A DNA stretch of 64,000 nucleotides from Syntrophales bacterium (GTDB lineage Bacteria > Desulfobacterota > Syntrophia > Syntrophales > UBA6109), in contig DAOSIS010000015.1 of NCBI GenBank assembly GCA_035366835.1, positions 23,949-87,948 of the forward strand, in the 5' to 3' direction. Of the stretch, positions 28,692 through 63,969 are shown in pieces. Made by a program: the position numbers and the translations under genes. Positions within the stretch are counted from its first letter, which is position 1; each line of letters begins with the position of its first letter. The notes beneath the pieces are model-generated. The model did no database searches, was not told the DNA's origin, and saw only the letters and a list, made by a program, of their open reading frames with translations.

Positions 28692-28701
28692 GGGTTCCCC
28701 G

Positions 28702-29205
28702 TTACCAGTACGACTCCAGGATGTTGACACGCTGGCTGAAGCTGGACGCGGAATTGTCCGCGCCGGTGACCGTAAGGGCGACATCGATCCGGCGGATGTT
28801 GGCCGCCGTTGCCGTCGCCGTCCCCGAACCATCGAAGTAGCTGAGGGTGAAGGCGGTGACGCGGTCGATCAGGGTCGTCCCGTTGATCTGCACCTTGTCG
28901 CCGGAAAGGGCGATGGCGACGGTGACGGGTCCCGTCCGCGTGCAGGTCACCGCGGAGGTTACCGACTGGGCCGGCGAGGGCGCGACGGCCGTCGCCGCGT
29001 GCAGTTCCTTCGCGATCCGCGTCAAGGCGACCTGGGCCTTCTGGAGCGTATCGGCGTTTTTCCGGGCAAAGACGTAGCCGCTCGCAATCTGCGTCAGGCC
29101 CATCCCCACGACGGCGACGAGAATGCCGATCAGCACGAGGCAAACGATCATCTCGACGAGCGTGAAGCCCTTATCGTCTGAGCGGGGTCCGTGCATCATG
29201 GCCAT
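28702..29205 (-). CDS. prepilin-type minor pilin/pseudopilin
   Basis: 167 aa. N-terminal methylation motif DKGFTLVEMIVCLVLIGIL. Confidence 0.8.
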   Translation of the reverse strand: MAMMHGPRSDDKGFTLVEMIVCLVLIGILVAVVGMGLTQIASGYVFARKNADTLQKAQVALTRIAKELHAATAVAPSPAQSVTSAVTCTRTGPVTVAIALSGDKVQINGTTLIDRVTAFTLSYFDGSGTATATAANIRRIDVALTVTGADNSASSFSQRVNILESYW

Positions 29206-31959: not shown

Positions 31960-32120
31960 TCAATCCGTCATCTACAAAAAATGTAGGTAAATGACAAAAA
32001 TTAGTAGAATTCGTTTTCCAAGGAGTACGGTCGAGTTGAGGATCGGAGGGTATTCAAGACAAAAAACGTTGTAAATCAACATGTTAATCATTATATTTTG
32101 GCATTTGCTTTCCAGGATAC

Positions 32121-32136
32121 TGGCATGTTATGTGCT
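32121..32136 (+). promoter_or_regulatory. candidate sigma54 (-24/-12) promoter for the pilin genes
   Basis: TGGCATGTTATGTGCT has GG-N10-GC spacing and is close to TGGCAC-N5-TTGC. It lies in an AT-rich region about 83 nt upstream of ATG 32219. Confidence 0.55.
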
Positions 32137-32218
32137 AAAGCCAAATTCTGAAAATGGAGGAGTAGTCCATTATCGACCATCCTGCTCCGTCAGGAAAAAA
32201 CTCTGAGGAGGAAATTGT

Positions 32219-32617
32219 ATGAGAACAAATCAGAAAGGCTTTACATTGATCGAGATCATCGCCGTCTTGATCATTCTTGGCATTCTGGCCGCAGTAGCCG
32301 TGCCGAGATTCATGGATCTGACGGCAGACGCCAGGAGGCAGGCCGCAAACGCAGCGGTTGCCGAAGGGATCGCGAGGGCAAATATGCTAATAGCTAGGAA
32401 CATTTTGTCAAGCGGTGGAACGATACCTACTGCGGCATGCGTAGTTGAGGGCCTGAACGCGAGTTATCAGAATGCGGGTGATTTCTCAATCTCCTATGCA
32501 GGTGCGGGCGGCGGTGGAACTGCGGGAACCATCACGGTTTCCGGATGGGGCGTCTCCGGCAACGTAAGTGGCGGGGATACCGTTGAAAAAGCGTTTGACA
32601 TGCCGACCTCCAATTAA
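32219..32617 (+). CDS. type IV pilin / pseudopilin (prepilin N-terminal methylation domain)
   Basis: 132 aa. MRTNQKGFTLIEIIAVLIILGILAAVAVPRF. SD GAGGAGG upstream. Confidence 0.85.
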   Translation: MRTNQKGFTLIEIIAVLIILGILAAVAVPRFMDLTADARRQAANAAVAEGIARANMLIARNILSSGGTIPTAACVVEGLNASYQNAGDFSISYAGAGGGGTAGTITVSGWGVSGNVSGGDTVEKAFDMPTSN

Positions 32618-32658
32618 TTTAATCTACACGCGTCCACCCATCTGAGGGGGGTGGTGAA

Positions 32659-33063
32659 ATGGCGTTTCGAACGAGGAGGGCGTCCCCTGGCCCGAGAGGC
32701 GAGGGTGGGTTTACATTAATTGAGATTATAAGCGTCCTCGTCATAATTGGAGTTCTTGCGGCTATCGCAGTTCCAAGATACATGGACCTCATCGACTACG
32801 CGAGGAACAGGGCCGCCTACGCGGCGCTTGCCGAGGGTATGGCCCGTGTGAACATGATCGCCGCCAAGCGGATTCTTCAAACCGGGAGCATTCCGAGCGC
32901 GGCGAGCGTTGTCGCCGATTCGGCATTGAACACGGATGCAGGAGATTTTTCCCTTAGTTTCGCAGCAAACGGCGAAGGCAGCGTCAATATCACTGCTTCC
33001 GGCACGGCGGGAAACGTGGACGGCGGAAGCGTGACAGGCAATGTCGGATTGCCCGTGTTGTAG
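32659..33063 (+). CDS. second type IV pilin paralogue
   Basis: 134 aa. GEGGFTLIEIISVLVIIGVLAAIAVPRY. Collinear with the first pilin (GDFS.S.A..G.G). Unusually long leader peptide if the start is correct. Confidence 0.8.
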   Translation: MAFRTRRASPGPRGEGGFTLIEIISVLVIIGVLAAIAVPRYMDLIDYARNRAAYAALAEGMARVNMIAAKRILQTGSIPSAASVVADSALNTDAGDFSLSFAANGEGSVNITASGTAGNVDGGSVTGNVGLPVL

Positions 33064-33100
33064 TGTTAACGGGAAACGGACAGATCGTGGTTTAGAACCA

Positions 33101-33146
33101 AGACAGGACATCGCCACCGATTAATAATTGTGGCGATGTCCTGTCT
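33101..33146. terminator. 17-bp perfect inverted repeat between convergent pilin and TPR genes
   Basis: AGACAGGACATCGCCAC - 12 nt - GTGGCGATGTCCTGTCT. The loop holds the stop codon of the minus-strand gene and the right arm encodes its last residues. Confidence 0.55.
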
Positions 33147-35115
33147 TCTTATGATGGATCCCTCTTTTTTTTTGTTCTGTATTGCGTCCTGCAGCCACTA
33201 ACGAGACGGTCTGACGGAGATTTTCACGTGCTTTTTCATAGCCGGGGTTGAGCATCAGCGCTGCCGAGAAGTAATACGCCGCTTTTTCCCAATCGGCGGT
33301 CTTTTGCATGGCGATGCCTGCATTGTTGTATGCCGCTACGAAATCCGGCTGCAACGCAATTGCGGCGACGAGGAATTGGATGGCATCCCGAGGGCGGTCC
33401 AAAAGGTTCAGGACTCTGCCGATATTGTTGTTGGTGTCCGCCCTCTTGGGCGACAGTACCAATGCCCGATGGAAATGGGCCAGAGCACGGTTGAGGAGGC
33501 CGACTCCCGCGTAGGCAACCCCTAAAATATTATGTTTCCACGAATTGTCGTCTGTCAACATTTCCGCGGCTGAATAGGCAGCGATCGCCCGTTTCGTTTC
33601 TCCCATTTTCACCAGGAGGTCTCCCTTTCCGATATAGGCATAGGAGTTTTTCCTGTCACGGAGAAGCGCATCGTTGAAATGGACCAGCACTTCTTCCAGC
33701 GGTGCGCCCTTTTTTTCAAGGAGATTTGCCAGGCTGGCATGCACGGAGGAGTAACCCGGCCAGATGGCGAGGGACTTGAGGATTTCCCTTTCCGCTGCTG
33801 CAAGATTCCCTTCCACCAGTAGAACATCGCCCAAAATCCGATGGGCGAGCCAGTTCTTTGCGGTGACCTCCGTCGCATGCTGAAAGAGGGTCTTGGTGTT
33901 CCTCCAATATTCCACTTGCCGCCAGGTGACCACGGACAGGATGATGAGAATTGACGCCGTCACAGCGGTCGCGAGCATCCATTGACGGGGGGCATCACTG
34001 AAGGCCGAGACACTCCAGACAATTGCAATGAAGACGCCGATAGAAGGCAGATACATGTATCGATCCGCCATGGACTGTAACCCTACCTGAACAATACCGA
34101 TTACGGGCAGCAGTGTGATCAGAAACCACAGCCAGCCGAACAGCACATAGGGGTGACGGCGGACGAGCAGGAAGGCGGCAAGCGAAACAAGGAGTAGGAA
34201 AACGCCTGCGCCGATAACACGCGGCGACAGAAGGGGGAAAGAAACATAAGGATAGAAAATGGCCAGACTGTCCGGCCAGAAAGTCTTTTCCATGTATCCC
34301 TGGTAGGATACCGCGGCATTCAAAATCCTCGCAGACAGCGGAATTCCGCTCAGGGTTGCCATCGCCCCGGCCTTTGCCTGGACGATCATCGTCACGATGC
34401 CTGAAAATAGGGAAAGGGAAAAAAACGGTATTTTTTCCATGACGACGGAGCGGTGCAATCTCAAATTCTGGAAACGCATCCAATCGGAGTATTGGTCTGG
34501 CGCCTCGATGCGCTTCAGAGGCCAGAAATCGAGGAGGAGAAAGACGATCGGCAGCGTGACGAGCATCGGTTTGGACAGGAGACCGAGGGCGAAGAGGAAA
34601 AGCGTTGCGGTGTAGCGAAGGGGGTGAGGTTTCCTTGCATAGCGTACATAGGAAAGGAGCGCCAGGATGCCGAAGAATCCCGATAGAACATCCTTCCTTT
34701 CCGAAATCCACGCCACCGACTCCACGTGGAGCGGATGGATACCGAAGAGCGCCGCGACCACGGCGCTTTCCCATCGCCTTCCCGTGGTTTCCAACAGCAA
34801 AAGAAACAGCAGCAGAGTATTGGCGATGTGAAAAAAGAGACTTGTCAGGTGATGTCCCACCGGATGCACGCCGTACATCTGGCAATCGAACATATGGGAA
34901 ATCATCGTAAGGGGATGCCAGTTGGCGGCAGCTTGGGTGGTGAACGCCCGGATCAGGCCTTCTTTCGTCAACCCCGCCTGAACGTGGTCATTCTGCGTGA
35001 CATATAACTGGTCGTCGTATCCGACGAAGTCGTTCTTGACCACGCCGCCGAAGGCGGTCAGGACCAGAAGGATCAGAACAAGACCGATCCAGCGGTCCTT
35101 CATGGAGATCGTCAT
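33121..35115 (-). CDS. TMTC/PMT_2-like polytopic membrane glycosyltransferase (GT-C type) with C-terminal TPR repeats
   Basis: Internal Met (MTISMKDRWIGLV...) of ORF 33121..35373. NDFVGYDDQLYVTQNDHV and FGIHPLHVESVAWISERKDVLSG resemble the TMTC/DUF1736 signature. The C-terminal half is TPR-like. Confidence 0.65.
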   Translation of the reverse strand: MTISMKDRWIGLVLILLVLTAFGGVVKNDFVGYDDQLYVTQNDHVQAGLTKEGLIRAFTTQAAANWHPLTMISHMFDCQMYGVHPVGHHLTSLFFHIANTLLLFLLLLETTGRRWESAVVAALFGIHPLHVESVAWISERKDVLSGFFGILALLSYVRYARKPHPLRYTATLFLFALGLLSKPMLVTLPIVFLLLDFWPLKRIEAPDQYSDWMRFQNLRLHRSVVMEKIPFFSLSLFSGIVTMIVQAKAGAMATLSGIPLSARILNAAVSYQGYMEKTFWPDSLAIFYPYVSFPLLSPRVIGAGVFLLLVSLAAFLLVRRHPYVLFGWLWFLITLLPVIGIVQVGLQSMADRYMYLPSIGVFIAIVWSVSAFSDAPRQWMLATAVTASILIILSVVTWRQVEYWRNTKTLFQHATEVTAKNWLAHRILGDVLLVEGNLAAAEREILKSLAIWPGYSSVHASLANLLEKKGAPLEEVLVHFNDALLRDRKNSYAYIGKGDLLVKMGETKRAIAAYSAAEMLTDDNSWKHNILGVAYAGVGLLNRALAHFHRALVLSPKRADTNNNIGRVLNLLDRPRDAIQFLVAAIALQPDFVAAYNNAGIAMQKTADWEKAAYYFSAALMLNPGYEKARENLRQTVSLVAAGRNTEQKKRGIHHKKTGHRHNY

Positions 35116-35366
35116 AAGGGGAGTCTCCCTGGCGGTTGCCGGAGACTTTATAGCGTACTCCTGCCGATTCCGCAAAATATTTGCGGAGCCCCAGGTAAGA
35201 GTTATCGTTGTTGATGGTTGCTCATCTGCCGTCGTCTGCCCTGACATTGCGTCCTGCCTTTCCTGAGAAGCAGCGCATGATTTTTCTTTTCTGAAATGTG
35301 CGGCGTTCACGGACAGGGCGCGAAAAAATAGTTTACGCGGGCACCCCTCAGCGGCTAATAAGGAGC

Positions 35367-37289
35367 ATGGCATTGAAAGAGCAAACCATCTCGCCGATCC
35401 TGATCGCGGCGGCGCTTATCGGGAGCCTTTTTTTCCAGGGACGAAATCTTTATGTCTTTCTTGCGGTGCAGGCGGCCCTGGTCTGCGCCTTGACGTATCG
35501 ACTGATGAGGGCACAGGCGGAAACCGTCCTCCTCAAGATCGATTTCATGTCCGGGGCCGTTCTTCTCTTCTGGGTATGGCTTGCCGTCAGCGCTTTTCTC
35601 TCCCGCGTTCCCTACGTCAGTGGGTTCATCTTCTGGTGGATCGGGGTCCTGCCGATGGTCTATCTGATCCATGTCCTGTCGCCGGAGACCGAAGATTCCG
35701 GGTCGGCGACTGTGATGGTTCTGCTCGCCGTTGGATCGGGGCTGGCTGCATGGGCTCTGTGCCAATTTATTGTCTGGCAGGATCCTCCGCGGGGACCTTT
35801 TATCTATCGTAATCTGCTGGCGGCGTTTCTCGGCATGCTGGCATTGATCGTGTCTGCCCGTTTCCTCATGAGAGACGAGAACGGGGGAACCCGTGAATTC
35901 TGGTTCCTGGCCGGGATCTTTCTGATGGTCCTGATCGTGGGTTTGATCCAGAGTCGCGGAGTCCTGCTCTGTTTTTCCATCGGTGCCTTCGCCCTCCTCT
36001 CTTTCTCTCGTCCGTTCGTGAAGAAAAGAAAGGATATCCTGACGATCATCGCAGTCTATGCGGTCGCCCTGGCCCTGGCCCAGGTCTCCTCGTCGGGGGA
36101 GATGGGTGCGAGAATGGCTACTCTCCAGGATCCCTATCAGGCTGGGGGAACCCGCTTCGTCATCTGGGAGGGGTCGTGGGAATTGTGGCAGCAGTCCCCT
36201 TGGTACGGCAACGGCATCGGGACGTACTGGCTGGCCTATCCGGCCTATCGGCAGGCGGACGATACCAACGCGGGCTTCTACGTCCACAACGACTACCTGC
36301 AGATTCTGATCGAAAGCGGCTGGCCGGCCCTGCTCCTGCTTTGCTGCATTTTGCTTGCGATCCTTTTTCTGTTCGTCAAGACATACAGGAGCGAATCGAC
36401 CGGCCCTTCTGCAAAAATCGAAGCTGCGGGCCTGTTTGCCGCGCTGCTGTCGATTTTTCTGCACAGCTTGCTCGATTTCAATCTCTATACGGTGCCGACC
36501 ATGATCCTGGCGGGGCTGGCCATGGGACGCCTCCGCTCGCTCTGTCATGACCCGCTTCCGTCCGTATCCATGAAAATTTCTTTAGGCCGCTGGCTCCGGC
36601 CGACTGTTTTTCGCTGCTGCCTGCTGTTTTTGGGACTCCTTCCGGGGATCTATTTCGTCACGGTTGGCGTTTCCTACTATTACCTCCAACGTGGCGAGGC
36701 GTTGATCGAGAAGGCTCAATTGAAAGAGGCCCTTGGGTCGCTGCGGATTTCCGAAGCCCTGTGGTCGAACCAGGACCGGCCGAAATATCTGCAGGCCAAC
36801 ATCTATCAGTTGACGCTGCAGGAAAATCCGCAAATGGATCTCGCGGTGCGTAGACAAGTATATGACGATGCACAGATGAAGTTGCAGCAGGCCGAAAGTT
36901 TGAATCCCTGGCGGCCGGAGATTCATGCCGTCCGCGGTCAACTGTACCGACAGAACCGCGACCTCGCCGGCCCGGACTGGTATGAAAAGGCCGTGCGGTC
37001 CTTTCGTCACGCGCTGGCTATCGACCCGCGATGCTACGATGCGCGGGTCTTCTACGCAAGGATGCTCTTGGAGACGGGCGATGCTCCAAAGGCCGCCGAT
37101 GTCTTGAAAGCGGGATTGAAATACTGGCATACGCCGGATGCCCGGATGATTTCCTATTATCGACTGACAGCGTTCGTTTGTCGGCAACAGGGAGATCATG
37201 CCTCGGCCACGGAAGCGGAAAAGAAGATGGCGGCCGTTATCGCGGCCTACCAAAGAGCCGCGCGGGAGAAATGGGAAAGGCCCTTTTGA
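35367..37289 (+). CDS. O-antigen ligase (Wzy_C) domain membrane protein with C-terminal TPR repeats
   Basis: Internal Met (MALKEQTISP..., SD AAGGAG) of ORF 35298..37289. NAGFYVHNDYLQILIESGWPALLLL is the Wzy_C/WaaL/PglL-type loop motif. TPR-like tail. Confidence 0.75.
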   Translation: MALKEQTISPILIAAALIGSLFFQGRNLYVFLAVQAALVCALTYRLMRAQAETVLLKIDFMSGAVLLFWVWLAVSAFLSRVPYVSGFIFWWIGVLPMVYLIHVLSPETEDSGSATVMVLLAVGSGLAAWALCQFIVWQDPPRGPFIYRNLLAAFLGMLALIVSARFLMRDENGGTREFWFLAGIFLMVLIVGLIQSRGVLLCFSIGAFALLSFSRPFVKKRKDILTIIAVYAVALALAQVSSSGEMGARMATLQDPYQAGGTRFVIWEGSWELWQQSPWYGNGIGTYWLAYPAYRQADDTNAGFYVHNDYLQILIESGWPALLLLCCILLAILFLFVKTYRSESTGPSAKIEAAGLFAALLSIFLHSLLDFNLYTVPTMILAGLAMGRLRSLCHDPLPSVSMKISLGRWLRPTVFRCCLLFLGLLPGIYFVTVGVSYYYLQRGEALIEKAQLKEALGSLRISEALWSNQDRPKYLQANIYQLTLQENPQMDLAVRRQVYDDAQMKLQQAESLNPWRPEIHAVRGQLYRQNRDLAGPDWYEKAVRSFRHALAIDPRCYDARVFYARMLLETGDAPKAADVLKAGLKYWHTPDARMISYYRLTAFVCRQQGDHASATEAEKKMAAVIAAYQRAAREKWERPF

Positions 37290-37342
37290 AGGCAGGTACT
37301 CGGCCTGAGTTCTTTCAATCGCCTTGACAATGCGGGAGCGGC

Positions 37343-43603: not shown

Positions 43604-44731
43604 ATGAAACGTTTTGTGTGGATGTTGGCCCTGTGCGTATTGGCCCTGTTCTGTTTCAGCGGCACCGGCTTCGCCCAGGCCGTTGAGAACGAACTGTACT
43701 TGATCACGCCCGTCTCAAAGGACGTCCATGATCCGGTGCTGAAGGCGTTTGCCGGCTATGCGAAGAAGAAGTGGGGCATCGACGTGAAAACGAGTGCCAT
43801 GCCCAAGGGCACCCCCGTCGCTTACGGACAGATCGTGGAGTGGAAGGGAAGGCCCCAGGCGGACGTCTTCTGGGGCGGCGAAGGGACGCTCTTCGACAAC
43901 CTCGCCAAGCAGGACTTGCTCGATAAGATCCAGGTGCCGGACAAGATGTGGAACGAGATCCCCGCCGAGATCGGCAAGCCCGTCGGGCTCCCGCTGAAGG
44001 ATCCCAAGAAATTCTGGGTCGGGACGATGCTCGAGCCCTACGGCCTGATCTATCAGCCGAAGCTTCTGAAGCGCCTCGGCGTCGTCATCAAGGACTGGGA
44101 CGACCTCCTGAATCCGAAACTGAAGGGGCAGATCGCGCAGTGCACGCCGGACCGTTCCAGCAGCAGCCATGCCTCCTATGAGGTCATCCTCGCCATGCAC
44201 GGCTGGGAGAAAGGCTGGCAGTGGTTGACGAAGCTGGCGGCCAACACGGGGATCTTCACGGCCCGTTCCCGCGACGTTCCGAGCGTCGTGTCCAAGGGGG
44301 AATTCGCCGTTGGATTCGCCGTGCCGAGCTACATGGCCTTCGCGGAAGCCCTCGGCGGATACGACGTCATGTACGTCTATCCGAAGAACGCCTACGTGAC
44401 GCCGGAGCCCATGGCCGTGCTCAAGGGAGCCCCCCATCCCAAGGCGGCCCACGCCTTCATCGAATTCCTGCTGACGGAAGAGGGCCAGCAGCTGGTCTCC
44501 CAGCTCGGCGTCTATCCCATCACCCCCAAATACAAAGTCCAGGGTCCTCCGGGGTCCAACCAGGAGAAGGCCGTGGCCTTCACGGGCGGCATGAGGTCTT
44601 TCTTCGACATCGAGGTCGGCAACGTCTACAACGACGAGATCGCCGGACCGAAGAAGCGCATCGAAGAAGTGAACTCCTATTTCCGCAAGGAAATCGCAGA
44701 AAAGCACAAGGACATCGTCAAGCAGAAATGA
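43604..44731 (+). CDS. ABC transporter periplasmic substrate-binding protein (Fe3+/AfuA-FbpA-like family)
   Basis: Internal Met (MKRFVWMLALCVLALFCFSGTGFA, SD GAAGGAGGGG) of ORF 43298..44731. Confidence 0.8.
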   Translation: MKRFVWMLALCVLALFCFSGTGFAQAVENELYLITPVSKDVHDPVLKAFAGYAKKKWGIDVKTSAMPKGTPVAYGQIVEWKGRPQADVFWGGEGTLFDNLAKQDLLDKIQVPDKMWNEIPAEIGKPVGLPLKDPKKFWVGTMLEPYGLIYQPKLLKRLGVVIKDWDDLLNPKLKGQIAQCTPDRSSSSHASYEVILAMHGWEKGWQWLTKLAANTGIFTARSRDVPSVVSKGEFAVGFAVPSYMAFAEALGGYDVMYVYPKNAYVTPEPMAVLKGAPHPKAAHAFIEFLLTEEGQQLVSQLGVYPITPKYKVQGPPGSNQEKAVAFTGGMRSFFDIEVGNVYNDEIAGPKKRIEEVNSYFRKEIAEKHKDIVKQK

Positions 44732-44751
44732 CGTCCGAAGACGTTCCATGA

Positions 44752-44795
44752 GGGACTCCCTGAAAGCGGCGCTTTCAGGGAGTCCCCTTTGTCTT
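44752..44795 (+). terminator. intra-operon hairpin / partial terminator after the SBP gene
   Basis: GGGACTCCCTGAAAGC-GGC-GCTTTCAGGGAGTCCC, a 16-bp perfect stem followed by CTTTGTCTT. Confidence 0.55.
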
Positions 44796-44821
44796 CAGCC
44801 TGCAACGAATCGGGTTCGACT

Positions 44822-45928
44822 ATGAATATTCAACTGAAGGACATGGTGAAGCGTTTCGGCGCCCTGGAGGCGGTGAGTCACGTTTCGCTTGACATCAAGG
44901 ACGGTGAGCTCTTCACGCTGCTCGGACCCTCCGGGTGCGGCAAGACGACGATCCTCCGTCTCATCGGCGGCTTTCACCGGCCCGATTGCGGAGAGATCTA
45001 CTTCGGGGACAAGGAGGTCTCGGACATTCCGCCCTACGAGCGGAACATCGGCATGGTTTTTCAGAACTACGCCCTGTGGCCCCACATGACGATCTTCGAG
45101 AACGTCGCCTACGGACTGAATATCCAGAAGAAGGTGCCGAAGAAGGATGTCGCCGAGAAGGTCAACTCGACGCTGTTGCTGGTCAATCTCACGGGCCTGG
45201 AAAAACGCTTTCCGGGCCAGCTTTCGGGGGGACAGCAGCAGCGCGTTGCCCTGGCAAGGGCCCTCGTCCTCAATCCGGACGTCCTCCTGCTCGACGAGCC
45301 GCTGTCCAACCTCGACGCCAAAATCCGGCAGCAGGTCCGTGCCGAAATCCGGAAACTCCAGAAGGAACTGGCCATCACCTCCATTTACGTGACCCACGAC
45401 CAGGAGGAGGCCCTTACCCTTTCCGACCGGATCGCCGTCCTGGATCACGGGAAGATTCAGCAGATCGGTTCCCCGCACGACCTTTACGAGCGGCCGGGGA
45501 ATCCCTTCGTCGCCGATTTCATCGGCATCAACAACCTGATCCCCGGCGACGTCCGGGAGATTCTCGAAACGCAGGGCCTGCTGGCCGTTTCGACCCGTTT
45601 CGGCTCGTTCCGCTGCGTGAACGAGGGCCTGCTGGAAAAGGGCGATCCCTGCAGGATCTGCGTACGCCCGGAAACCGCCTCCATCGGTTATGACGCAGCG
45701 CCGCAGGAGGGCCTCAATACGCTGGCGGGAAAAGTCAGTTTCGCCTCCTATATCGGGAACGCCATCCGTTACGACATCGAACTCGATCCCGAGACCATCT
45801 TCAAGGTGGACGTGCAGAATCCCTGGCACCAGCAGGCATTTCCGGTCGGCGAGAAGATCTTCGTGCGCTTCCCCGTGCAGATTACGCGGGGCATTCCCGT
45901 CCGAGATTCGAGAGGACTCCACACGTGA
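44822..45928 (+). CDS. ABC transporter ATP-binding protein (PotA/FbpC type)
   Basis: MNIQLKDMVKRFG.... Walker A GPSGCGKTT, signature LSGGQQQR, Walker B LLLDEP. Confidence 0.9.
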   Translation: MNIQLKDMVKRFGALEAVSHVSLDIKDGELFTLLGPSGCGKTTILRLIGGFHRPDCGEIYFGDKEVSDIPPYERNIGMVFQNYALWPHMTIFENVAYGLNIQKKVPKKDVAEKVNSTLLLVNLTGLEKRFPGQLSGGQQQRVALARALVLNPDVLLLDEPLSNLDAKIRQQVRAEIRKLQKELAITSIYVTHDQEEALTLSDRIAVLDHGKIQQIGSPHDLYERPGNPFVADFIGINNLIPGDVREILETQGLLAVSTRFGSFRCVNEGLLEKGDPCRICVRPETASIGYDAAPQEGLNTLAGKVSFASYIGNAIRYDIELDPETIFKVDVQNPWHQQAFPVGEKIFVRFPVQITRGIPVRDSRGLHT

Positions 45929-47640
45929 AGAGCATGTCGTCAACCGTTGCCCTGCCCAAAACCCGCTTTCTGGAGAACGTGACATTCGGAGGCTTGGCAG
46001 GCTATGCCGCCATCTGGCTCTTTTTCCTGGTTTTTCTCATCTATCCGCTGATCCGCCTCTTCTACGACAGCTTCACGACGGACGACGGCGTCTTCACGCT
46101 CGCCAATTTCCAGGATTTCTTCACGGACCGGTACTACCTGAAGTCGTTGATGAACTCTCTCGTTCTGGGCGTCGCCACGGTGGTCACGACGTCGGTCATC
46201 GGGATCGCCATCGCCTTCCTTCTCCTGCGCTACGACTTCCCCGGCCGCGGGCTCTTCTCGTATCTGACGATCATTCCGATGATCATGCCGCCCCTGGTCG
46301 GCGTCATGGGATTCGTCTTCATCATGGGCCGGGCCGGAACGGTCAACATCATCCTCCAGGATTATTTCGGTCTTCAGCAGCCCATCAATTTCATGTACGG
46401 CATCCACGGCGTTCTGCTCGTCGAGACGCTCCATCTCTTTCCCCTCATGACGCTCTCCATCGTGGACGCCATGGGGAAGATCTCCCCCTCGCTCGACGAG
46501 GCCGCGGAGAGCGTCGGATCCCGGGGGTTCCGGAAATTCTGGGACATCACCTTTCCCCTGACGACGCCGGGCTACGTCTCCGGGGCGCTCCTCGTTTTCA
46601 TCTGGACCTTCGCGGATTTCGCAACGCCGCTCGTTGTCGGGGTCGACGACCTGCTGGCCTCCCAGGCCTACCTGAACATCGTCCAGTTCGTGGACCGGCG
46701 CCTCTTCAAGATGGGGATCGTCATCTCGGCCATCATGGTCATTCTCGCGATCCTCTTCCTCATCATCGCGAAGAAGTACGTGTCCCTCAAGGATTACAGC
46801 TCCCTGAGCTATTCCGTGATCGAGCGGAAGAAACTCTCGCCGCTCGCGCAGGTCGGCGCGGTCCTTTTCCTGTCGCTGATCCTGCTTCTGGCTTTCATTC
46901 CCTATCTGGGGATTGCCTTGGATTCATTCGGGAAGGGGTGGGCCCTGACGCCCTTCCCCGTGAAATACACGCTCCAGTACTTCCAGCGGGTCGCGTTCGA
47001 AACGCCCAAGTTCATCCTCAACAGTCTCCTCTTCTCCGGCATCTCGGTGCTGATCTGCATCGTCGTCGGCGTGCCCGTGGCCTGGGTCATGGCGCGGACG
47101 AGGCTGCCGGGGAGGGACGTGCTGGACTCCCTGACGACGCTGATCCTGGCGCTGCCGGGCACCGGCATCGGCATCGCCTACATGCGGGCCTTCCGGGAGC
47201 CGTTCCCGTTCATGGAGACGGCGCTGATCGGCATGTGGATCATTATCCCGATCGTCCTAGGGGTCCGGCGCCTTCCCTACACCGTGCGGGGGACCTTCGC
47301 CTCGCTCCTCATCGTCCACAAGTCTTTCGAGGAGGCGGCGGAAAGCGTGGGTGCCACGAAGTCGAAAACCTTCAAGGACGTGACGCTGCCGCTGATCTGG
47401 AAAGGGGTGCTCGTCGGGTCGCTCTACTCGTTCATCCTCGCCCTGCAGGAGGCATCGGCCGCCCTGCTGCTCGTCGTTCCCGGCCACGAGATGATGACGG
47501 TGGGCATCTTCAACTTCTACATCGGCGGTTCCGTGAACGAGGCGGCCGCCCTGGGTTTCATTCTGATCATTCTGGGGGCGCTGTGCCTTCTGGTCATCAA
47601 CCGCCTGGCAGGTTCCAAGATGGGCGGCGTCTTCGGCTAG
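45925..47640 (+). CDS. ABC transporter permease, duplicated two-domain type (FbpB/ThiP-like)
   Basis: 571 aa polytopic protein. 4-nt overlap with the ATPase gene. Confidence 0.9.
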   Translation: MKSMSSTVALPKTRFLENVTFGGLAGYAAIWLFFLVFLIYPLIRLFYDSFTTDDGVFTLANFQDFFTDRYYLKSLMNSLVLGVATVVTTSVIGIAIAFLLLRYDFPGRGLFSYLTIIPMIMPPLVGVMGFVFIMGRAGTVNIILQDYFGLQQPINFMYGIHGVLLVETLHLFPLMTLSIVDAMGKISPSLDEAAESVGSRGFRKFWDITFPLTTPGYVSGALLVFIWTFADFATPLVVGVDDLLASQAYLNIVQFVDRRLFKMGIVISAIMVILAILFLIIAKKYVSLKDYSSLSYSVIERKKLSPLAQVGAVLFLSLILLLAFIPYLGIALDSFGKGWALTPFPVKYTLQYFQRVAFETPKFILNSLLFSGISVLICIVVGVPVAWVMARTRLPGRDVLDSLTTLILALPGTGIGIAYMRAFREPFPFMETALIGMWIIIPIVLGVRRLPYTVRGTFASLLIVHKSFEEAAESVGATKSKTFKDVTLPLIWKGVLVGSLYSFILALQEASAALLLVVPGHEMMTVGIFNFYIGGSVNEAAALGFILIILGALCLLVINRLAGSKMGGVFG

Positions 47641-47703: not shown

Positions 47704-49149
47704 ATGAGCGAAAGACTTTCTGCCTTCTTCTCCTTCCCAGGACTGATCCTCGTCGCATTGCTGGTCTTGACGCTCCCGCCGGCGCCAGCCTGCGTCCAGG
47801 CGCAGCCTCCGTCCGAAACCGGCAGCGCGGGCGGAGAGGTGGACTTCAGGACCGCGAACAAGGAGGCCATCGAGAAGCTGCGCAAGCTGCCGCCGGAAAA
47901 GATCGCCAGCCTCGACGAAAAACTCGCCGAGGCCCTGACCCTCTATTACGACGGGAAGTTCGCCCAGGCCCTGCCCATCTTCAACATGATCTCCGCCGAC
48001 GTGGAGACCATGGACATCATGTGGTGGCTGGGAACGAGCGCGATGAACGTCGGGGAGACGCGCCTCGCCGTGCAGAAATTCCAGCAGATGCTGGCGATCG
48101 ATCCCTCGCTGCACCGCGTCCGTCTCGAACTGGCCGCCGCCTATTTCCAGTTGAAACAGTACGAGGACGCCCGCCGTGAGGCGGAGGCGGTCAAGAATGC
48201 CCGGCCGCCGGAAGCGGTGGTCCGGAACATCGACAAACTCCTCGCGGCGATCGAGGAGAGCACCAAGACCCTCTACTGGAACGTGCGCTTCTCTCAGGGG
48301 ATTCAGTGGGACAGCAACATTTCCAGCGGCCCCGACCAGAAGGTGCTCAATGTGACGGGAGGAACCCTGACCCTCAACAACGACACGGCGGAGATCGGTG
48401 ACTGGGCGTCCATCACGAACTTCTCGGGGAACGTCCTGTACGACTTCGGCCGGAAGCAGGGCTTCATGTGGAATACGACGGCCGATCTCTACAACCAGTT
48501 CTACTTCCACAACGGCAAGTACAACTACAGCCTTGCGGATGTCTCGACAGGGCTCTGGTGGGTCGGACCCAGGGATATCCTGAAACTTCCCCTGGGTATG
48601 GCCAAGCAGGAGTTCGGCAGCGACCCGCTGTCCACCATCTATCACGTCAAGCCGAGCTGGGAGCACTACTTCACCCCCGGCTTCAGCGTCAAGGCCCTGT
48701 ACGCGTACAGCAACGAGCGCTTCATCGATGTGGAATACGATGATCAGGACAATGTCACGAACCGCTTCGAAATTACGCCGAACTTCTATTTCCTGAACCG
48801 GCGGCACATCGTTTCGATCAGCGGCGGCTACGAAAGATCCGCCGCGGACGCCCGGCGCTTCACCTACACGGCCCCCTACGGCGCCGTCTCCTACTATACG
48901 CGCTTTCCCACCAACACGGACCTTTTCCTGCGTTACCAGTATTCGAACCGGGATTACAAGGCGGCGCCCCTGCTCTACTCGGAAGATCGTGTCGACCGGC
49001 GCCACGCCTTTTCCATCGCCCTGAGCCAGGAGTTTCTGAAGCACTTCTTCACCTCTCTGGCCTTCAATTACATCGACAACCACTCGAATCTCGAACTGTA
49101 CGCTTTCCGAAAGCAGACCTACACACTCAGCTTCGGATTCTATTTCTGA
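47704..49149 (+). CDS. Slam-like outer-membrane protein (N-terminal TPR plus DUF560-type beta-barrel; type XI secretion-like)
   Basis: 481 aa. Signal peptide. TPR-like segment (LTLYYDGKFAQALPIF...AAAYFQLKQYEDA). Alternating-pattern barrel ending in the OMP C-terminus YTLSFGFYF. Confidence 0.7.
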   Translation: MSERLSAFFSFPGLILVALLVLTLPPAPACVQAQPPSETGSAGGEVDFRTANKEAIEKLRKLPPEKIASLDEKLAEALTLYYDGKFAQALPIFNMISADVETMDIMWWLGTSAMNVGETRLAVQKFQQMLAIDPSLHRVRLELAAAYFQLKQYEDARREAEAVKNARPPEAVVRNIDKLLAAIEESTKTLYWNVRFSQGIQWDSNISSGPDQKVLNVTGGTLTLNNDTAEIGDWASITNFSGNVLYDFGRKQGFMWNTTADLYNQFYFHNGKYNYSLADVSTGLWWVGPRDILKLPLGMAKQEFGSDPLSTIYHVKPSWEHYFTPGFSVKALYAYSNERFIDVEYDDQDNVTNRFEITPNFYFLNRRHIVSISGGYERSAADARRFTYTAPYGAVSYYTRFPTNTDLFLRYQYSNRDYKAAPLLYSEDRVDRRHAFSIALSQEFLKHFFTSLAFNYIDNHSNLELYAFRKQTYTLSFGFYF

Positions 49150-49167
49150 TTTTTCCGGGAGGTCACC

Positions 49168-51018
49168 ATGAACCGACGCATGCCCGTCCTGATCGTTCTC
49201 GCCGCAAGCCTGGCACTTCTTTGCTGTGCATGGCAGGTTGCCGACACTTTTGCCGCCGAGAAGAGCAGAGGCCATGCCGTTCCGGCGAGCCTCCTTCCCC
49301 GGGAGCTGAAGAACGTCGACGTCAAGGACCATTTCATCCCCGCAGGCACGAAGGCGGTCGGGGTGATCCAGTCCGTCATCGCCCATGTCGTCGTGGCCCG
49401 CAGGGATCTCGGCCAGGCCTACTATGCGGCCGACGGGGACAGGCTCTTTGAACAGGATGTGGTCTTCACATTGAAGGACTCCAAATGCCGCATCAAGCTC
49501 GCCAACGACGACATCATCACCGTGGGCGACAACAGCCGCCTGGCCGTCAACGAGATGACGGGCGACCGGAAGACCCCGGAAAAGAAATCGGTTCTGGAAC
49601 TGGCGCGCGGCAAGGCGATGTTCTATGCCATCCGCCTCCTCAACCACAAGAGCGCGACCATGAACGTGGTGAGCCCGACGGCCGTTACCGGCGTCCGGGG
49701 AACGAAATTCGGCATCGAAGTCACCGTGACGAACGAGACGGCGGCCGCCGCGCAGCCGATTCTTCTGGCCGACGCCTCCGCCGACTGGGGGCGACATCTC
49801 ATCCTCGCGCAGGCCGCGCCGTTGCCGGGAGTCACGACGGTCGTCCACGGATTTGAAGGCACCGTGGTGGTCACATCGACCGTCGACGGCAGGACGCAGA
49901 CCGTCGGCGCCGGGCAGACCTTATCGACCACACCGCAGGGCATCGGGGCGCTGATCCCGACGCCTCCGCAGGTTTCCCAGAGCTTCCAGTCCGCCACGAA
50001 TGTCCCGCCGCCGCAAGGGGCCGGAGGTGCCGGCGGCACGAGCGGCGGTCAGACCGGCGGCCAGAGCCAGGGCACGGCCGGCGGCACCGGGACGACGACC
50101 GCGACCACGACAACCTCCACCGAAACATCGCCGCCGCTGGTGGATACTTCGAGCGTGACGCAGACGCAGAGCACCAGCCAGACCGAACAGGCGGCAACGC
50201 AGACGGACCCCGTGACGGATCCGAAGACCAATGCCTCGGGCGGCCATACGGGCTATTTCGCGGGGATCCTCACCAACCTTTCTAAGGCGGGGATACAGGA
50301 CGTCTATGTCAGCCGGAACCGCTACGACGGCGACAGCAGCGTCTGGGGCAGGGGGCTCCTGAGCGCCCTGGATTATCTCCGTGTCGAGGGCGGCGGAAAG
50401 TTCGGGAACCCCACCCTGAAATGGGCCGAGCTCTTCGGTGCGACAAAATCTTCCGGGCCGCTCACGGTTCCCGTATCCTGCACAATCATGGGTACCTATA
50501 CCGACGGGTACGGCGGGCAGTACCTGGAATGGGGCTATGCCACGATTCCGTCCTTTGCGGTCGGCACGGAGAACTACGCCGTGGACAACCGGGCCTACTA
50601 CATCTTCGGCCAGAGCACGACCTCCGCCGACCTCATGAGCCTTACGGGAACGGCGATCTATTCGGGGGACGCCTTCGGGACCTACTGGACCTCCTCGGGC
50701 GGCGTGAACATGTCCGGCAGCTTCTCCTGTGACGTCAATTTCGCGACCAAGGCCGTGTCCGGCTTCAACCTCGGCGTATCGGGCTCCAATGTCTCCGCCG
50801 GGATCTCCGGCGCAAGCGGAACGATCGGCAGCGACGCGCACTTCCAGCTGACCGGCGGGACCTGGAGCCTCAACGGCACGACCCCCGCGAACACCAACGC
50901 CGGCGGCTCCCTCTACGGGCCGTCCGGCAGCTACATCGGCGGCCCCTGGGGAATGTCCACGAACGATGCGGCCGCCGCAGGCATCTACAAGGGGATAAAA
51001 AGCGGCGGGCCCTACTGA
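49168..51018 (+). CDS. exported FecR-domain protein with T/Q/G-rich linker and TbpB-like C-terminal beta-barrel (putative Slam cargo)
   Basis: 616 aa. FecR-like block (...ITVGDNSRLAVNEM...ARGKAMFYA...VVSPTAVTGVRGTKFGIEV). C-terminal pattern YSGDAFGTYW...GSFSCDVNFATKAVSGFNLGV...GGSLYGPSGSYIGGPWGM...AAGIYKGIK is collinear with TbpB/fHbp-type barrels. Confidence 0.7.
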   Translation: MNRRMPVLIVLAASLALLCCAWQVADTFAAEKSRGHAVPASLLPRELKNVDVKDHFIPAGTKAVGVIQSVIAHVVVARRDLGQAYYAADGDRLFEQDVVFTLKDSKCRIKLANDDIITVGDNSRLAVNEMTGDRKTPEKKSVLELARGKAMFYAIRLLNHKSATMNVVSPTAVTGVRGTKFGIEVTVTNETAAAAQPILLADASADWGRHLILAQAAPLPGVTTVVHGFEGTVVVTSTVDGRTQTVGAGQTLSTTPQGIGALIPTPPQVSQSFQSATNVPPPQGAGGAGGTSGGQTGGQSQGTAGGTGTTTATTTTSTETSPPLVDTSSVTQTQSTSQTEQAATQTDPVTDPKTNASGGHTGYFAGILTNLSKAGIQDVYVSRNRYDGDSSVWGRGLLSALDYLRVEGGGKFGNPTLKWAELFGATKSSGPLTVPVSCTIMGTYTDGYGGQYLEWGYATIPSFAVGTENYAVDNRAYYIFGQSTTSADLMSLTGTAIYSGDAFGTYWTSSGGVNMSGSFSCDVNFATKAVSGFNLGVSGSNVSAGISGASGTIGSDAHFQLTGGTWSLNGTTPANTNAGGSLYGPSGSYIGGPWGMSTNDAAAAGIYKGIKSGGPY

Positions 51019-51175: not shown

Positions 51176-51190
51176 TTTTGCCCAACGGGC

Positions 51191-51228
51191 GGATGTCCTG
51201 TATCAGCGGCGGGGCATCCGTTTTTTTT
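51191..51228 (+). terminator. intrinsic terminator after repeat copy B
   Basis: GGATGTCC-12 nt-GGGCATCC (8 bp including one G-U), followed by G and a T8 run (51221-51228). Confidence 0.55.
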
Positions 51229-51416
51229 CAGCGGTAAGTCCTCCATTTCCTCTCTGTGCAATGTCTCACGTCATGCACGTTTCTTCCCCTCCCATCCGAC
51301 GCCTGCTTCCGAATCAGATGTACAGGAGGACGCCTCGCAGAGTGAAGGCCCGGCCGATGGTGTGGCGGGTACATCATCGGCAGCCTGGGGAGAGGCAGGC
51401 GAGTGTCGGAATGGGC

Positions 51417-62119: not shown

Positions 62120-62334
62120 GCCTTGCCGACCTTCCGCAGCAAAATCGTTGTCCGAGGAATGTCCTGGAGGAAGCGGCGGGATTTGTCAATATTTTTTCGC
62201 GGAGGGAGGATCGATGGATGGGCCGAAGGACTCTTCCCGGGAGTAATGACCGCCCGATGAACAATAGCCTGCGGGAATCATTGTCATTACGCGCGGGTTA
62301 TGATAAGGAAGCTGACAGCCGCGAGGGAAAGACG

Positions 62335-63969
62335 ATGGTACGTAAGCGGAAGGTCGGACCGACGCGAAGTTTCTCCCGGGAAACGGACGAGTTGAAGGCC
62401 CGCCTCAAGGAGGCGGAAGAGACCCTGGAGGCCATCCGTTCCGGCGCTGTCGATGCCATCGTTGTCTCCGGGAAAACGGGGGAAAGGATCTATACCCTCC
62501 AAGGGGCTGACCAATCCTACCGGCTCCTCGTCGAATCGATCAGCGAGGGGGCTCTCACGCTGAACGCCGACGGCACCATCCTTTATGGGAACCTTCAGTT
62601 CGCGACCATGCTGGGGATCCCGCTGGATCAAATCATCGGCACATCCTTCTTAGGCTGCCTGTTCGAGGACGACCGGCGCGTCATCGAGCGGGTATTCCGC
62701 CGGGGAGATCCCGGAATTTCGCGCCATCAGGTGGCCCTGATAACCAGGGAAGGGGAGGGTCTTCCCGTCCAGTTCTCCCTGAACATCGCGGATATCGCCG
62801 GTGACCGGATCTTTACAGCCGTCGTCACGGACCTGGCGGAACAGATCCGTTACCGGGAAATCGTCGACGAAGAAAAACTGCTTCGCTCCATCCTGGAACA
62901 GGAACCGGTTGGGATCGCCGTATGTGACGCCACCGGGCGGATCATCCGGTGCAGCCGGGCGCTCCATGAGTTTTGCCACGAGCCTCCCGAAAAGCGCTTC
63001 TTCGAGGATCTCCTCGACCTCCGATACGAGGAAAACGGCGGGTGGGAGAAGTTGTTGCCGGCCATTCCGCTCCAAGGCGTGTCTTTGTCTGTCGTCGACA
63101 GCATCCTTCGTTGTCCGGACGGGAAAGTCCGTTATCTCCTGACCAGCGCCGCACCCCTCTTGGACGGGCATGGGAAAACCGTCGGCTGTCTTATCGTCCT
63201 CAGGGACGTCACCGAACGCAAGGCGATGGAAGAGCATCTCGCCGCACAGACGGTCGAACTCCGGACGAGTCAGGCGCAGCTGATGGATGCGAACAAAGAA
63301 CTGGAGAGTTTCAGCTATTCCGTTTCTCACGACCTGCGTGCCCCCCTGCGGGCCATCGACGGATACGCGCGGATGATCATGAGAAAGCAGGGCGACGCGT
63401 TCGATGATGAGACCAGAGAGCGGTTCAATCTCATTCGAAAGAACGCCGGCATCATGGGGAAACTGATCGACGATCTCCTGGCCTTCTCACGCCTGGGCAG
63501 AAAGGAATTGCAGGCGACGGCGATCGACATGCGGAAGATGCTGGAGAGCATCTGGGAAGAGCTGCAGGACCTCCACCCACATCGGCGGATGATCCTGAAG
63601 ATCGGCGACTTTCCGCCCGGCTGGGGCGATCCGGCCCTCATCAAGCAGGTCCTTGTCAACCTCCTTTCCAATGCGGTCAAGTTCACCAGAGGTCGGGAGG
63701 AGGCCTTCATCGAAGCGGGCACCTGCATCGAGGACGGTATGACGGCCTATTATATCCGCGACAACGGCGTCGGCTTCGACATGCGGTACGCAGACAAGCT
63801 GTTCAACGTCTTTCAACGGCTTCACGACGCCGATGAATTCGAGGGGACCGGGGTCGGCCTGGCCATCGTCCTGCGCATCGTCAAACGGCACGGCGGCCGG
63901 GTCTGGGCGGACGGAGAAGTGGACAGGGGCGCCGGCTTCTATTTTTCGCTGCCGGCGCGGGGCGGGTGA
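62335..63969 (+). CDS. PAS-domain sensor histidine kinase
   Basis: Internal Met (MVRKRKVGP...) of ORF 62218..63969. Two PAS-like segments. H-box FSYSVSHDLRAPLRAI. N, G1 and G2 boxes (LLSNAVKF, DNGVGF, GTGVGLAI). Confidence 0.9.
   Translation: MVRKRKVGPTRSFSRETDELKARLKEAEETLEAIRSGAVDAIVVSGKTGERIYTLQGADQSYRLLVESISEGALTLNADGTILYGNLQFATMLGIPLDQIIGTSFLGCLFEDDRRVIERVFRRGDPGISRHQVALITREGEGLPVQFSLNIADIAGDRIFTAVVTDLAEQIRYREIVDEEKLLRSILEQEPVGIAVCDATGRIIRCSRALHEFCHEPPEKRFFEDLLDLRYEENGGWEKLLPAIPLQGVSLSVVDSILRCPDGKVRYLLTSAAPLLDGHGKTVGCLIVLRDVTERKAMEEHLAAQTVELRTSQAQLMDANKELESFSYSVSHDLRAPLRAIDGYARMIMRKQGDAFDDETRERFNLIRKNAGIMGKLIDDLLAFSRLGRKELQATAIDMRKMLESIWEELQDLHPHRRMILKIGDFPPGWGDPALIKQVLVNLLSNAVKFTRGREEAFIEAGTCIEDGMTAYYIRDNGVGFDMRYADKLFNVFQRLHDADEFEGTGVGLAIVLRIVKRHGGRVWADGEVDRGAGFYFSLPARGG

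Follow-up and report, generated by a model that had tools for sequence, protein, structure and literature searches.

Introduction

Slam proteins, the outer-membrane translocons of the type 11 secretion system (T11SS), have been studied almost only in host-associated Proteobacteria, where their cargo proteins are lipid-anchored vaccine antigens or released hemophores. A 2025 survey of T11SS cargo across Proteobacteria defined cargo by a C-terminal barrel and distinguished about ten architectures, in which a variable N-terminal 'effector' and a 'pedestal' precede the barrel (PMC12282271). Neither this catalogue (PMC12282271) nor the 2021 description of the T11SS mentions FecR domains or Desulfo-/Syntropho- taxa. 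Here, we describe a Slam gene and its predicted cargo gene in 64,000 nucleotides of a Syntrophales genome (assembly GCA_035366835.1, contig DAOSIS010000015.1, positions 23,949 to 87,948; 'the window' hereafter, from whose first letter all window coordinates are counted). The Slam gene (47704-49149, + strand) is followed by an open reading frame (ORF; 49168-51018, + strand) that encodes, behind a signal peptide, a FecR-like module (N-module), a low-complexity linker and a TbpB-like lobe (C-module). Together, the two genes very probably constitute a Slam (type 11 secretion) cassette with a non-lipidated cargo, and the layout of this cargo is a new T11SS architecture in a neglected phylum.

Among described proteins, the Slam surface lipoproteins of Neisseria, Moraxella and Pasteurellaceae (TbpB, LbpB, fHbp and NHBA/GNA2132) resemble the cargo in their handle and eight-stranded barrel, in a disordered linker that separates the N-terminal anchor position from the lobe, and in a gene that adjoins Slam. 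Relatives of the window protein carry two or more lobes, in which they resemble TbpB. The cargo differs from these lipoproteins in that it has neither a lipobox nor a lipid anchor and instead carries a folded FecR-like module of 250 aa at the position of the lipidated cysteine; moreover, its hosts are free-living anaerobes rather than mucosal pathogens. The soluble hemophores HphA, hemophilin and HrpC are, like the cargo, non-lipidated, Sec-dependent, encoded next to Slam and built on the handle-barrel fold, but they have no extra N-terminal domain or long linker. Hemophores are encoded together with a TonB-dependent receptor and haem-utilisation genes (bioRxiv 10.1101/2023.03.29.534853). Neither kind of neighbour was found at the window locus or at related loci, and the fold match of the cargo to hemophores is confined to the level of the common handle-barrel.

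The N-terminal half of the cargo has its counterpart in the retention module of the LapA and MpIBP adhesins, with which it shares a small N-terminal beta domain followed by a flexible Gly-rich stretch, and the fold of MpIBP structure 5ix9. The LapA retention module, modelled on 5ix9, is described as a plug on the periplasmic side, from which a flexible Gly-rich continuation runs through an outer-membrane pore (bioRxiv 10.1101/198937). The job that we propose here is the same, that is, a periplasmic plug that would tether an exported protein through its own pore; the route, however, would be Sec and Slam rather than a type 1 secretion system (T1SS) with a TolC-like pore. LapG or LapD genes, a TAAG site, and a T1SS set of ATP-binding cassette (ABC), membrane fusion protein and TolC genes were not identified at the window or related loci.

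Results

The cargo gene is paired with a Slam gene

The ORF at 49168-51018 is a real gene, with an ATG start, 616 codons and a stop codon, and its GC content by codon position (0.57/0.54/0.84) follows the pattern of the neighbouring genes. Its upstream neighbour encodes a 481-aa Slam outer-membrane protein with a signal peptide and two Pfam regions, namely a periplasmic tetratricopeptide repeat (TPR) region (TPR_Slam, aa 88-158, 47965-48177, + strand; E=1.2e-9) and a membrane barrel (SlipAM, aa 192-481, 48277-49146, + strand; E=2e-11, with profile positions 1-288 of 288 covered). The stop codon of the Slam gene and the ATG of the cargo gene are 18 nt apart, and a GGGAGG ribosome-binding site (49157-49162, + strand), read directly from the sequence, lies 5 nt 5' of this ATG. 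A gap of 18 nt with its own ribosome-binding site is consistent with co-transcription of the two genes and an independent start of translation. About 170 nt past the cargo stop codon, a consensus scan picked up a terminator-like hairpin (51187-51230, + strand; a 15-bp stem followed by a T-run), which is likely to mark the end of the transcription unit. Exact RNA-seq contigs over the cargo gene are few and short (49540-49776, 49953-50100 and 50302-50465, from three wastewater or sludge runs). They are compatible both with low expression and with DNA carry-over, and are uninformative on co-transcription.

The C-terminal module matches only Slam-exported proteins

The C-module (aa 347-616) comprises a handle, or pedestal, beta-sheet domain (aa 347-489, 50206-50634, + strand), which begins at a conserved DPVTDPKTNASG..GYF motif, and a C-terminal barrel (50635-51015, + strand), the presumed Slam-targeting domain. 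AlphaFold2 (AF2) models were made for the N-module and the C-module separately. The C-module model (predicted local distance difference test score, pLDDT, 90.3; predicted template modelling score 0.89) shows a handle sheet followed by eight barrel strands; the handle strands occupy residues 15-135 of the model at a pLDDT of about 85-92, and the barrel reaches about 95. When this model was compared with the PDB by Foldseek, the top 50 matches were all established Slam/T11SS cargo (TbpB, NHBA, fHbp, LbpB and HphA). Among them were the TbpB C-lobe (5kkx, 6.6e-7) and NHBA (6cuj, 1e-6), as well as the HphA/hemophilin entries 8gmm and 8glo; the whole of the C-module aligns with the TbpB C-lobe, fHbp and HphA.

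Sequence comparison gave the same picture. By phmmer against PDB sequences, the window protein matches the C-terminal barrel of NHBA/GNA2132 (E=5e-5), and a profile of 12 family members finds only TbpB (1.8e-8), NHBA and LbpB. Pfam TbpB_B_D (PF01298) is detected in 5 of 12 family members and exceeds its gathering score in the relative at locus L028, whereas the window protein itself matches only FHBP_C in Pfam, at an E-value of 0.006-0.05, below the cut-off. Since the C-module matches only Slam-exported proteins, by sequence as well as by fold, we take it as evidence that the protein is a Slam cargo. A first, sequence-only reading of this DNA had proposed just such a TbpB-like barrel behind a FecR domain. 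Every motif that it quoted is present in the translation (LALLCCAW, ITVGDNSRLAVNEM, VTGVRGTKFGIEV, the PPPQGAGG...TQTD linker, YSGDAFGTYW, SFSCDVNFATKAVSGF, GGSLYGPSGSYIGGPWGM and AAGIYKGIK), the domain searches to which it had referred detected both folds, and none of the observed features is attributable to a chance-level match.

The leader is of the signal peptidase I type

The leader was judged by hand inspection together with family alignments. The signal peptide (aa 1-29, 49168-49254, + strand) is of the signal peptidase I type, with cleavage between MNRRMPVLIVLAASLALLCCAWQVADTFA and AEKS; it has a basic n-region (MNRR), a hydrophobic core of 17 residues and a site between TFA and AE. 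The absence of a canonical lipobox had been noticed at the outset from the string LALLCCAW. We defined a lipobox as [LVI][ASTVI][GAS]C with the Cys as the first mature residue; both Cys of LALLCCAW lie within the hydrophobic core and have L or C at position -1, hence the cargo leader has no lipobox. This extends to the family. An assessable leader is available for 123 members. It is entirely free of Cys in 55 of them, and the lipobox-like string found in another seven lies in each case inside the hydrophobic core and is followed by more core and an AxA site. By contrast, a small-x-small site stands directly before the conserved RG motif of the mature N-terminus (xxRG...LPxxL) in 101 of the 123. 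On the survey of these leaders we rejected a lipoprotein, and, as far as leader sequences can tell, the family is processed by signal peptidase I and not lipidated.

A FecR-like module and a low-complexity linker precede the lobe

The N-module (aa 30-277, 49255-49998, + strand) consists of the mature N-terminus with its xxRG...LPxxL motif, a FecR-like beta domain with an invariant GVRGTKFG, and a small second beta subdomain that ends in a helix (PTPPxVxxxF). The FecR assignment of the sequence-only reading is borne out by Pfam FecR (PF04773), which matches aa 98-185 (49459-49722) with E=3.1e-8 and 34.4 bits against a gathering cut-off of 24, and by a PupR-like predicted fold. The AF2 model of the N-module, built with 22 homologues, has a pLDDT of 82.5, and its significant fold matches in the PDB are just three, all of them periplasmic parts of proteins: the periplasmic cell-surface-signalling domain of PupR (6ovk, E=7e-6), the Parabacteroides anti-sigma factor BDI_1681 (4m0n, E=2.5e-5) and, from the MpIBP adhesin, a 'cell surface anchoring domain' of 76 residues (5ix9, E=4.8e-3; template modelling score 0.76 on the target, root-mean-square deviation 1.1 Å across 63 columns). 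An N-module profile searched against PDB sequences returned nothing useful, only a de novo design at E=0.17. For the relations to PupR and 5ix9, the basis is the predicted fold together with sub-threshold NCBIfam matches.

Two sets of NCBIfam models bear on the module. The LapA retention model (retention_LapA, NF033682) matches 12 of 13 diverse N-modules below threshold; for the window N-module, the match reaches 28.3 bits against a cut-off of 50 and covers profile positions 3-70 of 145, that is, only half of the profile. The N-module therefore resembles the LapA retention module without being a member of that family. The Lsa33 and LipL45 models, which represent Leptospira FecR-domain lipoproteins, gave partial sub-threshold matches in all 13 of the diverse N-modules, at scores far under the curated cut-offs (46 vs 420 bits). 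LipL45, Lsa33 and Lsa19 are the best NCBIfam matches of the N-module, yet they are lipoproteins and have no barrel lobe.

The linker (aa 278-346, 49999-50205, + strand) is rich in T, G, Q and S (19 T, 13 G, 9 Q and 8 S among 68 residues counted). It had been put at ~90 aa; its presence stands, but its length is 69 aa, or about 70-85 aa by choice of boundary. A linker of 28-120 aa (median 53) is found in all 58 of the full-length relatives.

Slam linkage is conserved across a Thermodesulfobacteriota family

A word-indexed homologue search returned only 33 relatives and thereby understated the family; these came from Syntrophales, Syntrophus and Thermodesulfobacteriota metagenome-assembled genomes (MAGs) and were labelled just 'FecR family/domain protein' or 'hypothetical'. 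An exhaustive profile search yielded 247 clusters at 50% identity (E<=1e-30), about 100 of which span the whole 600-aa architecture. A scan of one reference genome per species gave 63 related loci (denoted by L-numbers), all in Syntrophales, Desulfobacterales, Desulfatibacillaceae and allied MAGs. Among the carriers are Desulfobacterium sp. N47 and a symbiont of Olavius; two to four copies occur in some of the genomes.

ORFs were called in all loci and searched with the window Slam. Of the 63 loci, 51 have a Slam gene, which lies upstream and in the orientation of the cargo in 47 and downstream in four; in 26 loci the upstream Slam lies within 150 nt of the matched region, and in five the upstream sequence is too short to judge. 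In all three contexts looked up by exact protein, Slam is immediately upstream and the other genes are unrelated housekeeping genes. The adjacency of orthologues to DUF560 (Slam) genes, on which the sequence-only reading had staked its proposal, is thus a feature of the family. All-against-all clustering of the flanking ORFs revealed no widely common genes besides cargo and Slam.

The two modules of the cargo are not equally conserved. In 52 of 58 relatives the N-module is closer to the window protein than the C-module is (median identities 42.5% vs 33.6%). Between the window and its congener L005, identity is 91-98% for flanking genes, 89% for Slam, 82% for the cargo and 72% for the barrel; that the barrel has diverged more than any other part is what one would expect if it is exposed at the surface.

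The family also varies in the number of lobes and genes. Many Syntrophales relatives of ~870 aa have two handle-barrel lobes, in the manner of TbpB, and multi-lobed relatives have up to six matched stretches in as many as 1973 aa. In P0034 (1663 aa), P0035 (1973 aa), P0036 (1421 aa) and L018 (6001-9552), a single FecR module is followed by three to six handle-barrel lobes in tandem. Two cargo genes occur per locus in L012 and L042, and in L012 they flank the Slam gene on both sides. In L001, an OmpH/Skp chaperone gene (10749-11294) directly follows a two-lobed cargo gene.

Some relatives are encoded with peptidoglycan-binding modules or CHASE2 proteins

In 13 of the 63 loci we found an OmpA_C peptidoglycan-binding module with a characteristic N-terminal extension (SPLEFLK..AH+DA.GEVYLGKV). 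It takes two forms. In five loci (L028 5272-7638, L030 4251-6623, L033, L045 and L057) it is fused N-terminally to the FecR module through a Pro/Lys-rich spacer, and the 788-aa fusion of L028 matches OmpA (1.5e-16), FecR (1.8e-11) and TbpB_B_D (2.4e-6). In eight others (L040 5420-5962, L042, L043, L053, L058, L060, L061 and L022) it is a separate 180-aa protein with a signal peptide, encoded between Slam and cargo. The occurrence of both fused and split forms speaks for cooperation between the OmpA-type protein and the N-terminal half of the cargo. Peptidoglycan is periplasmic, and its binding would place that half of the cargo in the periplasm.

A second association concerns CHASE2 sensors, whose genes lie beside the cargo in ten loci, mostly convergent and just downstream (L014, L016, L018, L019, L020, L023, L024, L031, L038 and L046). 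Their output domains include a Ser/Thr kinase (L031) and adenylate/guanylate cyclases (L018 and L046). A comparable association is known from Burkholderiales operons, in which a periplasmic FecR protein that binds peptidoglycan is encoded together with a CHASE2 histidine kinase (PMC5192318). The relatives resemble such COG4254 (LysM and FecR) proteins, for example those of the Burkholderia BiofilmReg operon, in joining a peptidoglycan-binding domain (OmpA_C instead of LysM) to FecR or in having a CHASE2 neighbour; they differ in that the COG4254/BiofilmReg proteins have no TbpB-like lobe and no Slam, and the window locus for its part has no CHASE2 or OmpA-type gene.

Genomic surroundings of the cassette

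The window is a chromosomal segment of 60-69% GC with ordinary housekeeping genes. Its sequence is present in metagenomes of activated sludge, anaerobic digesters and bioreactors, and an Rfam scan found no RNA family across its whole length. Directly upstream of Slam lies a three-gene ABC importer (43607-47640, + strand) that consists of a binding protein, an ATPase with TOBE_2 and a fused double permease, with a strong 16-bp hairpin (44752-44786) between the binding-protein and ATPase genes. Its nearest NCBIfam models are of the PhnS2/T2/U2 type, all below cut-off, and are not specifically iron-related. Among the related loci, this neighbourhood is common only to congener L005, and we therefore rejected a functional tie between importer and cargo as a family feature.

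A lower-GC island (32000-37300; 0.53-0.55 vs ~0.64) holds two type IV pilin-like genes with an N_methyl motif (32219-32617 and 32659-33063) and a gene for a Wzy_C O-antigen-ligase-like protein with TPRs (35298-37289). It also encodes a 750-aa multi-pass membrane protein (33121-35373, - strand) with C-terminal TPR repeats, the N-terminal 480 aa of which have no Pfam match. Relatives of this last protein, with 24-35% identity (31-35% in all but one) over alignments of 400 to 650 residues, are encoded directly beside the FecR-barrel gene in eight other loci (L008, L026, L040, L042, L043, L044, L052 and L062). A GT2-type glycosyltransferase gene is found in six of these eight and in L009, and is fused to GT1/GT4 where scanned (L044 and L062); this neighbour may point to glycosylation of the Thr/Ser-rich linker or of the cell surface. 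Elsewhere in the window, an 880-aa protein with BACON domains is encoded at 26190-28832 (- strand), and the only signalling genes seen are those for a GGDEF diguanylate cyclase (6493-7953, - strand) and a PAS/PAS histidine kinase (62218-63969, + strand), both of which lack CHASE2.

Discussion

We infer that the lobe of the cargo is exported, that its N-module is retained, and that the linker passes through Slam. In this model, the protein would first be exported by Sec, and its unfolded C-terminal lobe would be recognised by the adjacent Slam and threaded to the surface. There the lobe would fold and bind a ligand or mediate adhesion, like its counterparts in TbpB, fHbp, NHBA and HphA. The FecR-like module, in what is the most tentative step, would fold in the periplasm, be unable to pass the translocon and hence stay inside, as a protein anchor and a partner-binding head, with the low-complexity linker spanning the outer membrane. 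In relatives that encode them, the peptidoglycan-binding OmpA-type proteins or the CHASE2 sensors would be the partners of the head. A folded periplasmic domain would thereby substitute for the N-terminal lipid anchor of the classical Slam surface lipoproteins, in analogy to the LapA-type retention module, and this is possibly a new anchoring principle for Slam cargo. That the protein is a non-lipidated cargo of the neighbouring Slam we hold with high confidence; the tether model as a whole is a tentative proposal, to which we give somewhat less than an even chance.

Several lines of evidence suggest retention of the N-module. All of its solved structural relatives (PupR, BDI_1681 and 5ix9) are periplasmic, and its own relatives associate with OmpA_C modules and CHASE2 sensors. 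Slam1 was reported to translocate only unfolded TbpB, with Skp as the holdase (PMC9090332), which would bar a folded module. The layout, that is, an anchor, a disordered linker and one or more handle-barrel lobes, mirrors that of TbpB with the lipid replaced. Lastly, the N-module is the better conserved half, and the barrel has diverged most from L005. The sequence-only reading had left the protein as either released or anchored differently, and the comparative evidence leans towards the latter without deciding between the two.

A number of observations weigh against the tether model. To our knowledge, no T11SS cargo spans the outer membrane; those known are either lipid-anchored outside or fully released, and HphA-type cargo traverse Slam entirely, along with their N-terminal domain. 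The entire cargo chain could also be held in an unfolded state by a chaperone, for instance Skp. No Slam was found in the available flanking sequence of seven of the 63 loci, all with sufficient upstream sequence, which is a poor fit with a cargo that permanently fills its translocon, although five of these seven are paralogues of a Slam-linked copy in the same genome. Neither an OmpA-type nor a CHASE2 gene was found at the window locus or in its Syntrophales clade, so the retention argument is borrowed from relatives whose N-modules are 35-47% identical. The CHASE2-linked loci, moreover, are mostly one clade plus two lineages with N-modules just 42-51% identical. The OmpA-fused forms have two linkers, and in them the FecR module could lie outside, with nothing but the OmpA part on the inside. 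Finally, the Leptospira lipoproteins that best match the N-module in NCBIfam (Lsa33 and LipL45) are named as surface adhesins.

Of the alternatives, full secretion in the manner of hemophilin survives best, although we consider it less likely than the tether model. Here, the whole protein would pass Slam and be released or loosely held at the surface, with the FecR-like module as effector, the handle as pedestal and the barrel as targeting domain, and this agrees with the published order of variable N-terminal effector, pedestal and C-terminal barrel (PMC12282271). The cargo indeed lacks a lipobox, there are known soluble T11SS cargo proteins, HphA and hemophilin, that appear in its fold matches (8gmm and 8glo), and both the missing OmpA or CHASE2 partner at the window locus and the surface designation of Lsa33 and LipL45 fit a released protein. 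On the other hand, no TonB-dependent receptor or other uptake partner was found near any locus examined, the OmpA_C fusions and CHASE2 neighbours of relatives point to a periplasmic N-terminus, as do the exclusively periplasmic structural relatives of the N-module, and it would be unusual for an exposed effector to be the most conserved part.

The same objections apply to a variant in which the whole protein is outside and non-covalently held, the exported FecR-like module binding an outer-membrane component (Slam loops, lipopolysaccharide or another outer-membrane protein) as an external anchor or adhesin. Leptospira FecR-domain proteins are annotated as surface adhesins, and FecR domains are protein-binding modules (PMC5498481), both of which would suit such a hold. 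However, a fusion to OmpA_C would be senseless on the cell exterior, and the loci have no conserved candidate for a surface partner, so that we regard this variant as quite improbable. Very improbable is a purely periplasmic protein, the TbpB-like lobe of which would act in the periplasm with Slam as a functional partner instead of a translocon. The Sec leader, the periplasmic-type relatives of the N-module and the paralogues with no adjoining Slam would accord with it; against it stand a C-module that matches only Slam-exported proteins and the tight pairing of Slam and cargo in a common orientation at 47 of the 63 loci, which is the signature used to predict T11SS cargo.

We find next to no merit in reading the protein as a canonical FecR-type anti-sigma factor that governs iron uptake, or as part of an iron-uptake system with the ABC transporter upstream of it. 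The Pfam FecR match, the PupR (6ovk) and BDI_1681 (4m0n) fold and an importer directly upstream on the same strand are outweighed by a module that is fused to an exported lobe and preceded only by a cleavable leader, by a cargo with neither a cytoplasmic anti-sigma domain nor a transmembrane helix after the leader (Pfam and NCBIfam), and by an importer that is shared with L005 only and is not of a specifically iron type. No extracytoplasmic function sigma factor and no TonB-dependent receptor or transducer were found in the window genes scanned or among the recurrent neighbours in 68 loci. Canonical FecIRA iron signalling is thus effectively refuted by the domain architecture, and nothing ties the C-lobe to iron.

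The tether model could be taken one step further, to an outer-membrane-spanning, TonB-independent device for signalling from surface to periplasm. One or more Slam-exported TbpB-like lobes would be joined to the periplasmic FecR-like head by a linker held in the Slam barrel, and the head, braced on peptidoglycan by OmpA-type modules, would signal the binding of a ligand, or a mechanical load, to CHASE2 kinases or cyclases in the inner membrane. We think this extension improbable. If true, it would be a protein-tethered counterpart of FecA-FecR signalling and the first Slam cargo to stay threaded in its translocon.

The combination of FecR with Slam had been suspected to be uncharacterised, and this view holds within the literature searched: it is missing from the 2025 catalogue, and we found no paper that joins Slam or TbpB with a FecR domain; a single co-mention uses FecR merely as a filter for hemophore neighbourhoods. 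With 63 loci and 247 clusters at 50% identity, Slam/T11SS is common in free-living anaerobic Thermodesulfobacteriota, and in this family a folded domain, the solved structural relatives of which are all periplasmic, takes the place of the lipid anchor. If the retention model is true, it would explain how a Slam cargo stays on the cell with no lipid, it would offer a naturally 'stalled' substrate with which to trap an intermediate of Slam-cargo translocation, and it would tie the T11SS both to peptidoglycan and to CHASE2 sensors, which are still ligand-less. If it is wrong, syntrophs and sulfate reducers would still have, in this family, a new and large class of soluble T11SS cargo.

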